Positions 41,262 through 44,641 of a stretch of DNA of 64,000 nt are shown piece by piece (within the stretch, counting starts at the first letter, position 1; each line of letters begins with the position of its first letter). The stretch lies in contig OZ243043.1 of NCBI GenBank assembly GCA_965212075.1, forward strand, positions 27,167 to 91,166, in the 5' to 3' direction. A program made the translations under genes and the position numbers. Under the pieces are notes generated by a model that was given only the letters and a program-made list of their open reading frames with translations, had not been told where the DNA came from and ran no database searches. The stretch is from Alphaproteobacteria bacterium. Lineage in GTDB: Bacteria > Pseudomonadota > Alphaproteobacteria > JAPOUT01 > G958296285.

Positions 41262-41741
41262 TCAAGATAATAGCCGCGTGATCCGAAAACCGATCTTGCC
41301 GTCAATTTCCACAAGCTCGCCTTCGGCAAAAGCGTGGCCGGAAGCAATGGCATGTGCGCGAGGGAAGATCAGGTTGGGCAGGTCGGTGAGTGTGAAGCCG
41401 GGTGTGAGTGCCGCAAGTTCATTGACTGGCATAGACACTTCACCTATGCGAAAACTGATCTTCACGTTAACATTTTCTAGCGTGACGTTTTCCGGCGTAT
41501 CGCTTTCTGGTGGTTTGTTTTCTGGTGGCTCATTTTCTGGTGGTTGATTTGCGCTCACGCTGTCGGCGCTGATGTTCGGCGCGGGCGGATTTTGGCTCTC
41601 ATTTTGTTGAGGTGCTTCGGGCTCTGCTTCAGGTGTAGGAGACGTGCTTTGTTCATTGGCAGGTTGCTTCTGCGCAGAGTCTTTGGATGATGCTGGATCA
41701 AAGACGGGGTCATGATTTTCTGTATCTGTGGGGTCTGTCAT
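41262..41741 (-). CDS. sctQ: SctQ C-terminal SPOA protein (FliN-like)
   Basis: P/E/S-rich linker then VKISFRIGEVSMPVNEL...GELVEIDGKIGFRITRL; in-frame stop shortly upstream of the ATG. Confidence 0.85.
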   Translation of the reverse strand: MTDPTDTENHDPVFDPASSKDSAQKQPANEQSTSPTPEAEPEAPQQNESQNPPAPNISADSVSANQPPENEPPENKPPESDTPENVTLENVNVKISFRIGEVSMPVNELAALTPGFTLTDLPNLIFPRAHAIASGHAFAEGELVEIDGKIGFRITRLLS

Positions 41742-41893
41742 GATGGCATCCGTAATTTTCTCTTCCCCATTGAAGATAGCTTATCGCGAATAAGTCGAGA
41801 GTTAAACTAATAGTGATAATTCACCGTTAGAGGAAAAAATTACTAGATTGATCATAAATCTGATATAAGGTTAAAAAATAACCATAATTGATT

Positions 41894-43996
41894 ATGTCTT
41901 TCTTCACGCGTTTCAATCCTCTTTTAGAAAAAATATCCGAGCGTCAGGATGTGATTTTAGCGACTTTCATCGTCTCGGTGATTTTCATGCTGATTTTGCC
42001 CCTGCCGACGCTGCTTGTGGATGCTCTGATCGCGTTTAACATATCAATTGCGGTGATTTTGCTGATGGTCGCGGTTTATCTGGGTTCTCCGCTTGATTTT
42101 TCGTCTTTTCCGGCGGTGCTGCTGATTACGACTTTATTTCGGCTGGCGCTGTCAATTTCCACGACGCGGCTGATTTTGTTGCAGGGCGATGCGGGACAGA
42201 TTGTTTCCGCTTTTGGGAATTTTGTTGTGGGTGGTAATCTTGTTGTGGGTCTAGTGATTTTCCTTATTTTGACGATTGTTCAATTTATTGTGATCACGAA
42301 GGGTGCGGAGCGTGTGGCGGAGGTGAGTGCGCGTTTTTCACTTGATGCGCTGCCGGGCAAGCAATTAAGCATTGATGCCGATATGCGCGCCGGCGCCATC
42401 ACATTAGATCAGGCGCGTACTTTGCGCGCGCGCATCCAGCAGGAGAGCAAGCTTTATGGCTCTATGGATGGCGCGATGAAATTCGTCAAAGGCGACGCGA
42501 TTGCTTCGGTGATTATTGTGTTTGTCAATCTTCTTGGCGGCTTGGGCATTGGTATTTTGCAGCGTGGTCTGAGTTTTGGCGAAGCAGCGCATATTTATTC
42601 TATTTTGTCTATCGGCGATGGATTGATTGCGCAGATTCCAGCTTTGTTCATTTCCATTACGGCGGGGATCATGGTGACGCGCGTCTCGGATGGGGTCAAT
42701 GACGCCAATTTAGGCCGCGACATTGGCAGGCAGATAAGCGCGCAGCCGCGTGCTTTGCTGATTGCCTCGGCGATGTTGGTCGTGATGGCATTTTTGCCCG
42801 GTTTTCCCAGCGTGATTTTTGTGGTTCTTGCCCTTGTGCTGGGCGTTCCTGCGCTGATCGCGACATTGAGTCTGCGCAAGGCACCAAGCTGGGATGATGA
42901 AGATGTGCAAAGTGCTGCGCCCGCTGCCCCGGATCAACCGGCGGGTGGGAAGAAATTTTCCGCCGCGCGCGATCCGATTTTTGCGCCGACGCTTCCAGCT
43001 CTGGTTGAACTGCCCAGCACGGTTCTGACTCTCGCGCCGCCGCCGGAAATGCGCGACCAGATCAACCAGGCGCGCCTGACGCTTTATTATCGATTGGGCG
43101 CACCTCTGCCTGTGATTGAGACGCGAGTCAATCCCGGGCTTGAAAATAATCAATATAAAATTTTCATTGGCGAGATTCCCGCCGCCGATGGCGTGGTTGA
43201 ACCGGCGTCTTTATTTGTGATGGAGAAGGCTGAAAATCTGGACGTCTTTAAAATCCCCTATCGCAAAGGCGCAGATTTTTTATCAAATCACCCGACTTTA
43301 TGGGCCGATCAAAAAGACATATCACGGCTTGACGGCGCAGGGTTCACTTATAAAAAACCGCTTGAGCTGATTCAATATCATTGTGAGACCGTGCTGGCAA
43401 AATATGCTGCGAGCTTCATCGGCATTCAGGAGACAAAATTTTTGCTCGCGCGGATGGAGGAGAACGCGCCCGATCTGGTCAAAGAGGCGCAGCGCGCGCT
43501 GCCGCTGCAGACGATTGCGGAATTATTTCGCCGTCTTGTGCAGGAATATGTTTCCATCCGCGATCTGCGGCAGATATTAAGCGCGATCATAGAATGGGGC
43601 GCTAAGGAGAAAGATCCTATTTTGCTCGTTGAGCATATTCGCTCGTCTTTATCGCGGCAGATCAGCTACCAATATTCGGTTGGCTATAATATCCTTCCGG
43701 CATTTCTGCTTGACAGCGAAATTGAAGAAACTGTGCGCAATGGCGTGCGGCAGACATCGGTCGCGAGCTATATTGCGCTTGATCCGGAAGTGGCCAAGAA
43801 AATCGTTGCGGGCATTAAATCCATGATGGGTTCAGCGCTGGACGGCGATAATATGCCGGTGCTCATCACGGCAATGGACATTCGCCGCTATGTCCGCCGC
43901 CTGATTGAGATTGATCTGCCGGAAATTCCGGTGCTGTCGCATCAGGAAATCACATCGGAGATCACTTTGCAGCCGCTGGGGCGGGTTGTGCTTTGA
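41894..43996 (+). CDS. sctV: Export gate protein (LcrD/FlhA family)
   Basis: FPAVLLITTLFRLAL, KGAERVAEVSARFSLDALPGKQ, GSMDGAMKFVKGDAIA. Confidence 0.96.
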   Translation: MSFFTRFNPLLEKISERQDVILATFIVSVIFMLILPLPTLLVDALIAFNISIAVILLMVAVYLGSPLDFSSFPAVLLITTLFRLALSISTTRLILLQGDAGQIVSAFGNFVVGGNLVVGLVIFLILTIVQFIVITKGAERVAEVSARFSLDALPGKQLSIDADMRAGAITLDQARTLRARIQQESKLYGSMDGAMKFVKGDAIASVIIVFVNLLGGLGIGILQRGLSFGEAAHIYSILSIGDGLIAQIPALFISITAGIMVTRVSDGVNDANLGRDIGRQISAQPRALLIASAMLVVMAFLPGFPSVIFVVLALVLGVPALIATLSLRKAPSWDDEDVQSAAPAAPDQPAGGKKFSAARDPIFAPTLPALVELPSTVLTLAPPPEMRDQINQARLTLYYRLGAPLPVIETRVNPGLENNQYKIFIGEIPAADGVVEPASLFVMEKAENLDVFKIPYRKGADFLSNHPTLWADQKDISRLDGAGFTYKKPLELIQYHCETVLAKYAASFIGIQETKFLLARMEENAPDLVKEAQRALPLQTIAELFRRLVQEYVSIRDLRQILSAIIEWGAKEKDPILLVEHIRSSLSRQISYQYSVGYNILPAFLLDSEIEETVRNGVRQTSVASYIALDPEVAKKIVAGIKSMMGSALDGDNMPVLITAMDIRRYVRRLIEIDLPEIPVLSHQEITSEITLQPLGRVVL

Positions 43997-44005
43997 GCGC
44001 TGCCG

Positions 44006-44641
44006 CTAGCGGCAAGGTGAAAGGAGAATCACATCACCGCGCGCTAAGGTTGGCAAGTCTTTCGCGGTGATTTGGGCCTCAGCGATATCAATGGGGAAGC
44101 GGACATAAAGCTGAGGCGGCCAAGATTTTCTTGCAAAAGGAATGAGGTTCAGCTCTGCGCTCAGTTCTGAAAATGGGAAGTCGGCATGAGTCCAGACAGC
44201 CAGCTGAATTTTTTCATGAGAATTTTTGAGTTCGCAGCCAATGTGGATTGCCAAATCTTTTGGCGGGCTTATATTCAAATGCCAGTCCTGTAGGTGGATG
44301 GTCTCGGGCAGAGCTTTTAATTTGTTGTTGAGAATATGAGTGAGTGCCGCGCGCGCGAGTTCCGGCGATAATTCGGGCAATGTCCACGGCGCGCATAAAG
44401 CATTGATGTCTTTGATGAAGGGGATGTTCCGGAATCCAATTTTCATTTCATGTTGATTTTGAAATGATAAAGCCAAGAGCAGAGGGAATTTGTTAAGCGG
44501 CACGAGGTCTGATGCCTCAAGAACAAAATCGGTCTGCGCGATTTGTCTGTGAGGGCATGTGTGCAAAAATTGGTTATGCGCATGGATTTGCCCTGCATCG
44601 CCCTGAGGCAGTTTTGGAAATTGGACTGTCGGTTGTTTCAT
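44006..44641 (-). CDS. Probable SctQ N-terminal portion
   Basis: Directly follows sctP; ends in a SPOA1-like start FPIDIAEAQITAKDLPTLARGDVILL. Confidence 0.65.
   Translation of the reverse strand: MKQPTVQFPKLPQGDAGQIHAHNQFLHTCPHRQIAQTDFVLEASDLVPLNKFPLLLALSFQNQHEMKIGFRNIPFIKDINALCAPWTLPELSPELARAALTHILNNKLKALPETIHLQDWHLNISPPKDLAIHIGCELKNSHEKIQLAVWTHADFPFSELSAELNLIPFARKSWPPQLYVRFPIDIAEAQITAKDLPTLARGDVILLSPCR

Follow-up and report, generated by a model that had tools for sequence, protein, structure and literature searches.

The stretch of DNA considered here, which we call the window, is 64,000 nucleotides long, comes from an alphaproteobacterial genome (assembly GCA_965212075.1, contig OZ243043.1, positions 27,167 to 91,166) and carries the genes of an injectisome-type type III secretion system (T3SS). 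Its sctQ gene, which specifies the pod protein of the sorting platform, is present as two genes, QN (sctQ-N) and QC (sctQ-C), which are 2.26 kb distant from each other and have sctV between them, on the opposite strand. The N-domain of SctQ is retained on QN and SPOA2 is present on QC, a complete SPOA1 is absent, and the domains are not on one polypeptide. The evidence from sequence comparison suggests, with a probability that we put at about 0.75, that the two products together would form a working two-protein SctQ. The split arrangement is probably an old and conserved one that works, rather than the outcome of damage. The genes and intervals concerned, with lengths in amino acids (aa) or base pairs, are as follows:

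44006-44641, minus strand: QN (sctQ-N), 211 aa; N-domain at residues ~15-168 and first half of SPOA1 at ~175-208
43997-44005: sctV/QN gap, 9 bp between convergent stop codons
41888-43996, plus strand: sctV (export gate), 702 aa; TIGR01399 883.7 bits (cut-off 692.25), PF00771 E 7e-219
41742-41887: QC/sctV divergent intergenic region, 146 bp, AT-rich; presumed promoter/operator region for both units
41262-41741, minus strand: QC (sctQ-C), 159 aa; PF01052 FliMN_C E 1.1e-9, residues 88-158

QN is the last gene of a minus-strand row made up of sctW, a 126-aa open reading frame (ORF; x), sctD, sctP and QN, while QC is the first of a second minus-strand row of QC, sctR, sctS, sctT and sctU. The combined gene position is sctP-[QN ... 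QC]-sctR, with QN directly after sctP and QC directly before sctR. Start codons for sctV are found at 41888 (TTG) and 41894 (ATG). The ORF map and family scans bear out, gene by gene, the positions and strands that an initial annotation of this DNA had given to both sctQ halves, sctV, sctP and sctRSTU, including the divergent region shared by QC and sctV.

SctQ is cut inside SPOA1

QN aligns to positions 34-169 of the SctQ family model TIGR02551 (SpaO_YscQ) with an E-value of 1.2e-4, under the curated cut-off, and QC aligns to positions 213-300 of the same model. QC also matches PF01052 at 38.5 bits, above the cut-off of 23.8. A profile of the QN family picks up full-length SctQ proteins, the alignments covering their first ~210 residues (~5-215), and this, with the TIGR02551 match, supports the earlier proposal that 44006-44641 is related to SctQ. 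The full-length proteins tested are the nearest non-split relatives of QN; seven of the eight exceed the TIGR02551 cut-off, and they extend ~40 residues beyond the end of QN before a linker and then SPOA2 follow.

On these profile alignments, QN is the SctQ N-domain plus the first half of SPOA1, and comparison with the full-length relatives likewise upholds the incomplete SPOA1 of the initial annotation. Residues 175-205 of QN align with residues 88-118 of QC (hhalign E 2.2e-4, probability 45%), which are positions 1-31 of the 71-residue SPOA domain, and the chain stops 8 residues past the GD motif, its C-terminus reading ...GDVILLSPCR. In an AlphaFold2 (AF2) model of one full-length relative (P0038), the order strand-strand-helix precedes the GD motif (residues 204-205) and three strands follow it (219-223, 229-235 and 238-245), and the strand pattern of SPOA1 is repeated in SPOA2.

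The alignment of the QN family (A4) has 27 rows, with the partial matches P0025, P0027 and P0039 left out. The GD motif is present in 26 of the 27, and in 23 of these 26 the chain ends 4-29 residues later, the tails being polar and unconserved. Longer tails of 38, 63 and 70 residues after the motif occur in P0007, P0022 and P0026, of which only P0026 looks SPOA1-complete; in P0021 the chain stops short of the motif. The four columns of the alignment that are nearly invariant (P175, L199, G202 and D203) are all within the half-SPOA1 tail, where an interface would be expected to have them. Residues 1 to ~85 of QC show no conservation and are rich in Pro, Glu, Ser and Asn, and as aligned QC is without the missing half of SPOA1.

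The genome to which the window belongs is a single contig of 1,613,014 bp, and a search of it with TIGR02551 and PF01052 at E <= 1, which a fragment of 30-40 residues could escape, found no SctQ or SPOA gene besides QN and QC. The initial annotation had held that no full-length SctQ can be made here, and this stands, because the halves are two genes with an opposite-strand sctV between them and there is no intact sctQ elsewhere in the genome.

Junctions and soundness of the assembly

The possibility that an assembler misplaced or misoriented sctV, or that a frameshift conceals a continuous sctQ, carries practically no weight. The identical order is found on single contigs in three independent genomes (G001, G002 and G003), and a frameshift cannot join the halves since a 2.1-kb gene on the opposite strand separates them. 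Positions 41000-42292 are covered by a 2735-nt contig of sequencing run X1, and the sctV/QN junction is crossed by contigs of X1 (4339 nt), X2 (360 nt) and X3 (819 nt, 17 differences). These three runs come from two studies in all, X3 being from the other study, and X1 may be the source sample of the window. An assembly error is excluded for the position of sctV between the sctQ halves, and the contigs settle the doubt about the junctions that the initial annotation had raised.

The borders of sctV are without flanking repeats, insertion sequence elements or inverted repeats, the only matches being short and chance-sized. A 12-nt palindrome, GCCGCTAGCGGC, lies at 44002-44013, across the QN stop codon. 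The 3' ends of sctV and QN, separated by 9 bp in the window, overlap in relatives by 4, 24, 44 and 4 bp (loci L023, L024, L025 and L028).

Within the QC/sctV intergenic region, an alignment reveals a block of ~50 bp (about 41776-41822, ...AGCTTATCGCGAATAAGTCGAGAGTTAAACTAATAGTGATAATTC...) that is almost identical in G001 and partly so in G002, where its core AACTnnTAGTGATAAT recurs. In G001 the adjoining N-terminal part of QC shows little conservation, and a 16-mer of the block occurs once in the whole window. The block is a candidate for a shared operator or promoter of QC and sctV. Gene orientation in the window and the unlinked halves of relatives suggest that QN and QC belong to separate transcription units, in agreement with what the initial annotation had proposed. 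Scans for consensus promoters (7 sites vs 6.0 expected) and terminators (10 vs 8.5 expected) gave chance-level results, so that minus-strand read-through from QN via antisense sctV to QC may still take place.

The start-codon contexts of QN and QC (44626-44648 and 41726-41748) are 83% identical over 23 nt (...TGCCATCATGA..., coding strand), which may be chance or may mark a joint translation-initiation context. The 44-bp spacer between sctP and QN (within 44655-44700) has an AT-rich run containing TATAATTTTTTTA twice, for which 0.13 matches are expected by chance in the window. Its positions 44659-44693 are matched by parts of further contigs from runs X1 and X3, and this spacer element seems to recur elsewhere.

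Distribution, gene orders and history

The order QN, inverted sctV, QC-sctRSTU is found in all four other genomes of the family, on single contigs in G001-G003 and across a contig break inside sctV in G004, with QN identities falling from 58% to 26% and reading frames open throughout. Short QN genes of 211-258 aa with a separate short QC are present in five more genomes from four further families. QN is intact and of about equal length in all 10 genomes examined with this T3SS clade, even where identity is as low as about 15-26%.

More widely, the QN profile was compared with 401 genomes sampled from the class and matched in 13, and in the taxonomic order of the host it matched in six of eight genomes. 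Short QN ORFs of 207-258 aa were found in G000-G003, G109, G272, G232 and G384; the longest ORF in G003 has 303 aa with an unaligned N-terminal extension, its length being judged from the representative P0007 (253 aa) and the alignments. Full-length sctQ genes of 324-369 aa are present in G186, G121 and G241, and the profile also matched open frames of 424 and 453 aa in G140 and G367. Among 1.84 billion public protein representatives there were 35 matches, 23 of them 189-258 aa long; the family has few public members, and these are diverse. The gene orders found are these:

Gene order A: QN, inverted sctV, QC-RSTU; family f1, which includes the window
Gene order B: sctV divergent from QC-RSTU, with sctW-D-P-QN away, at 52 kb (G006), at about 330 kb (G272) or on another contig (G109)
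Gene order C: QC-R-S divergent from sctV-W-D-...-QN; G232
Gene order D: QN-sctV-sctD-QC-RSTU, all co-directional; G384

At the order D locus (L129, G384:C2, 9427-16756), QN has 235 aa, QC has 94 aa and no long arm, and the gaps between genes are 11-34 bp.

In a tree of 44 SctV sequences (quick IQ-TREE, LG+G4), nine split systems from five families form one clade (support 100 in the Shimodaira-Hasegawa-like approximate likelihood ratio test, branch 0.39). A further 34 SctV sequences (Bordetella/Achromobacter, Ysc, Desulfovibrio and more types) are placed outside it, and none of the systems they come from has a truncated QN beside sctV. Bordetella and Achromobacter are among the nearer outgroups. 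The simplest reading of this tree would be that the cut in sctQ arose once. None of the 80 loci returned by an SctV-based locus search, which had identities of 56% or less throughout and no close relatives among them, has a truncated QN beside sctV, and a search of genome contigs with QN only found no relative.

The initial annotation had presented the inverted sctV as what split sctQ. This cause is not established, as related lineages have truncated halves of the same kind that are unlinked or otherwise arranged. The divergent sctV-QC junction is common to orders A, B and C, and order A is nested in the clade as sister to G006. Polarised on the SctV tree by a hand count over few taxa, the gene orders need three changes if the unlinked order is ancestral and four if QN-sctV-QC is, which is too close to decide whether insertion of sctV into sctQ founded the split.

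Predicted structures

The AF2 model of QN has a predicted local distance difference test score (pLDDT) above 90 over residues ~20-170, while the tail (171-211) scores 44-82 and is almost without secondary structure when modelled alone. The folds closest to the model belong to CheX, CheC and the middle domain of FliM; the ten best Foldseek rows have probabilities of 0.94-1.00, with template modelling scores of only 0.22-0.40. Against sequences of the Protein Data Bank (PDB), the QC family profile matches the C-terminal part of YscQ (3UEP, E 8.7e-11), that of HrcQB (1O9Y, E 1.3e-9) and FliN structures (E 1.6e-4 to 1.2e-3); the QN profile gave only a chance-level match there (3Q34, E 0.44). A shared-word protein search returned 5 matches for QN and 16 for QC, none informatively named.

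A complex of QN with two copies of QC (residues 78-159) was predicted with a score of 0.44 vs 0.04 for the best of three controls, and the runs share at least 62% of contacts, with a partner pLDDT of at least 73. The mark for this score was reached by 58 of 80 solved complexes and by 2 of 110 mismatched pairs; passing scores of 0.60 or less include only 7 of the 80 solved complexes but both of the passing mismatches. The job departed from this calibration in using its own alignments and three chains, and its score may mirror likeness to solved SPOA complexes alone. Of the earlier idea that the sorting platform assembles from separate halves, the separateness is confirmed by the gene structure, and physical assembly is a conjecture with which this score is consistent.

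The surrounding secretion genes

The other T3SS genes to which the argument refers are:

44686-45540, minus strand: sctP (needle-length/T3S4 protein), directly upstream of QN; PF09483 HpaP E 2.7e-7
40569-41240, minus strand: sctR, family match; directly downstream of QC
40291-40563, minus strand: sctS, family match
39508-40290, minus strand: sctT, family match
38465-39511, minus strand: sctU, family match
47386-48498, minus strand: sctW, first gene of the sctW-x-sctD-sctP-QN row
29552-30226, plus strand: sctK, expected SctQ partner; PF06578 YscK E 1.1e-4, 22.2 bits (cut-off 22)
30223-30882, plus strand: sctL, expected SctQ partner; TIGR02499 96.2 bits
30869-32218, plus strand: sctN, expected SctQ partner; NF005391 703 bits
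32230-32697, plus strand: sctO, expected SctQ partner; FliJ-like, weak match

By family scans, the core genes sctC, D, F, J, K, L, N, O, P, R, S, T, U, V and W are all intact. The sctQ halves have injectisome genes as neighbours, namely the sctC secretin, the sctF needle, the sctW gatekeeper and translocator chaperones, and sctJ, K, L, N, O and C make up a plus-strand set in the window. SctN keeps its Walker A motif (GVGKST, residue 183). The autocleavage motif of SctU, canonically NPTH, is NPAH at residue 262 of the product of 38465-39511. Across the split-SctQ clade, N, P and H of this motif are constant and the third position reads S, S, S, D, T, T, E and T. The longest sctD ORF (45585-47382 region, 575 aa, TTG start) overlaps the conserved 126-aa ORF at 47002-47382; SctD family matches start at residue ~132, and the true sctD start is therefore probably downstream of 47002. 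After sctC come a gene for a STAS-domain anti-sigma-factor antagonist (34340-34699) and a 477-aa gene (34680-36113), which we presume to recall the partner-switching regulators of the Bordetella bsc locus.

A working model and its alternatives

In the proposed two-protein SctQ, QN would give the N-terminal domain, with a FliM-middle/CheC-like fold and, by analogy with studied systems, SctK binding, together with a conserved tail of ~35 residues that corresponds to the first half of a SPOA domain. QC would give a flexible, acidic and proline-rich arm and a complete SPOA2, which by analogy would dimerise and carry the SctL/ATPase spoke, and it would replace the internally initiated SctQ-C product of one-gene systems. 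Both genes are presumably expressed, and because QN and QC would be made from different transcription units they would have to meet in trans, in the manner of FliM with FliN and of HrcQA with HrcQB. The QN tail may dock on the SPOA2 of QC, by strand complementation or as an add-on to the QC homodimer, and such docking would link the SctK side to the SctL side. A canonical intramolecular SPOA1-SPOA2 pseudodimer would not form, because the last three strands of SPOA1 are missing.

We hold a more specific version of this tentatively, at rather less than even odds. Here, a clade of reduced-genome Alphaproteobacteria would build its pods without a complete SPOA1; the half-SPOA tail of QN would be completed in trans by the SPOA2 of QC, and a three-chain assembly (tail plus QC dimer) would serve as the SctL-binding module in place of the pseudodimer, unlike any studied T3SS. 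The ratio of QN to QC would be set by their separate operons, which would also allow independent regulation.

Several observations weigh against a working two-protein SctQ. Both halves are below the TIGR02551 cut-off of 100.8 bits (60.2 and 22.1 bits), and the P0038 model that displays the missing strands has a mean pLDDT of 63.8, with only 50-60 in the region of those strands. The verdict of the complex prediction for QN with two QC is no more than 'weak support'. Among the differences between strain contigs, 6 of 10 in QN change an amino acid as against 3 of 30 in sctV, by which QN is weakly constrained over short times, on a small sample of 10 differences. There is also the contact with SctL. 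The surface that the SctL peptide of Salmonella buries is larger on SPOA1 than on SPOA2 (Notti 2015, PMC4443714), and SPOA1,2 pulls the peptide down better than the SPOA2 homodimer does (PMC4443714). A half SPOA1 could weaken this key contact. In Salmonella a complete SPOA1 gives more than half of the SctL-peptide interface (PMC4443714), and its truncation is therefore no trivial loss.

Such points bear on the other suggestion of the initial annotation, that the rearrangement broke sctQ and left QN as a decaying relic in a T3SS that is inactive or without a normal sorting platform. Gene decay is common in small genomes. This genome has 1.6 Mb, SPOA1 is incomplete, and the strain differences of QN divide into 6 non-synonymous and 4 synonymous. 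We nonetheless regard damage as very improbable, as the order is kept in all four of the other family genomes, QN keeps its frame and its length in the 10 genomes examined, the remaining core T3SS genes are intact, the QN N-domain is predicted with a pLDDT above 90, and the tail holds the most conserved columns. A relic would not be expected to persist across five families of reduced genomes. There is a small but less negligible chance that both halves work without touching each other, with QN as an adaptor on the SctK/SctD side, the QC homodimer as a FliN-like module on the SctL side, a third protein as bridge, and the QN tail in contact with something else. SctQ-N binds SctK and the SPOA part binds SctL in studied systems (PMC13614641), SPOA2 fragments homodimerise alone (3UEP and 1O9Y, the top QC matches), and the complex prediction is weak. 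On the other side, the QN tail is homologous to the very half of SPOA that, in SPOA dimer structures, interlocks with the partner chain; the score of the complex exceeds the best of the three controls by 0.40, and no candidate for a bridging protein was identified. A two-protein SctQ whose halves meet directly is the reading that we prefer, and under it QN would bind QC and the system would be active in secretion.

Comparison with known systems

The nearest known parallel is HrcQA/HrcQB of the Pseudomonas syringae Hrp1 system, where SctQ likewise exists as two polypeptides that must associate in trans, and where the small subunit HrcQB consists of a flexible arm and SPOA2, as QC does (QC profile vs 1O9Y, E 1.3e-9). 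The genes hrcQA and hrcQB are adjacent ORFs of one operon (PMC3574062), and the 238-aa HrcQA is said to end in one SpoA1 that pairs with the SpoA2 of HrcQB (PMC4832279). In contrast, the halves in the window are parted by an opposite-strand sctV (relatives have them unlinked) and QN breaks off midway through SPOA1, a comparison in which HrcQA enters by its description only. New with respect to HrcQA/HrcQB are the non-adjacent halves, apparently in different transcription units, and a SPOA1 cut in half. A description of a non-adjacent split SctQ, or of half a SPOA1, was not found in the main texts of the openly accessible literature, subscription journals being outside this scope. An adjacent split like that of HrcQA/HrcQB was seen at locus L057 (10570-11634) of a gammaproteobacterial metagenome-assembled genome (Ca. 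Azotimanducaceae), with a 248-aa ORF, a 100-aa SPOA ORF 16 bp downstream and then sctR. The first ORF there passes the GD motif and goes on for 29 residues beyond its QN-like part, enough to complete SPOA1.

SctQ proteins made from one gene (YscQ, SpaO, Spa33, SsaQ and Xanthomonas HrcQ) have the same building blocks of N-domain, SPOA1 and SPOA2. They are paralleled here in two further respects, a free SPOA2 product beside the product with the N-domain, and a gene position between sctP and sctR. In full-length SctQ, the N-terminal peptide of SctL is bound by the intramolecular pseudodimer of SPOA1 with SPOA2 (PMC4443714), and the internally initiated SPOA2 product homodimerises and joins full-length SctQ (PMC13614641; PMC4443714; PMC4832279). 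Unlike these, the system in the window is without a full-length chain and without the last three SPOA1 strands.

FliM and FliN are likewise the products of two genes, one with a CheC-like middle and a SPOA-type C-terminus and the other essentially a lone SPOA domain. Unlike QN, FliM has a complete SPOA domain, and fliM and fliN are normally adjacent. The pair in the window also differs in its injectisome neighbours and in having neither a FliG partner nor a CheY-binding peptide, and no further SPOA gene is present in its genome. Two separate ORFs for one core T3SS component have a precedent in the split secretin rhcC1/rhcC2 of rhizobial-type T3SS, whose halves are in some strains parted by an oppositely facing gene (PMC3574062); unlike the split SctQ, this concerns the outer-membrane secretin and another T3SS family.

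Significance

The sorting platform has SctQ as its central scaffold, and injectisomes and flagella are described as having the SPOA1-SPOA2 module of SctQ for their common assembly unit (PMC4443714). Split systems of the present kind may be called SctQ-less or incomplete by T3SS detection based on family models, because each half is under the curated SctQ threshold. The clade can be taken as a natural experiment: the chain has been severed within SPOA1, the latter half of the domain has been given up, and the two products have become uncoupled genetically. Should the system be capable of secretion, neither a complete SPOA1 nor a covalent link between the N-domain and the SPOA part would be needed, a minimal interaction peptide for SPOA2 would be defined, and the proposed route between FliM/FliN-type and one-gene SctQ-type platforms would gain an intermediate.

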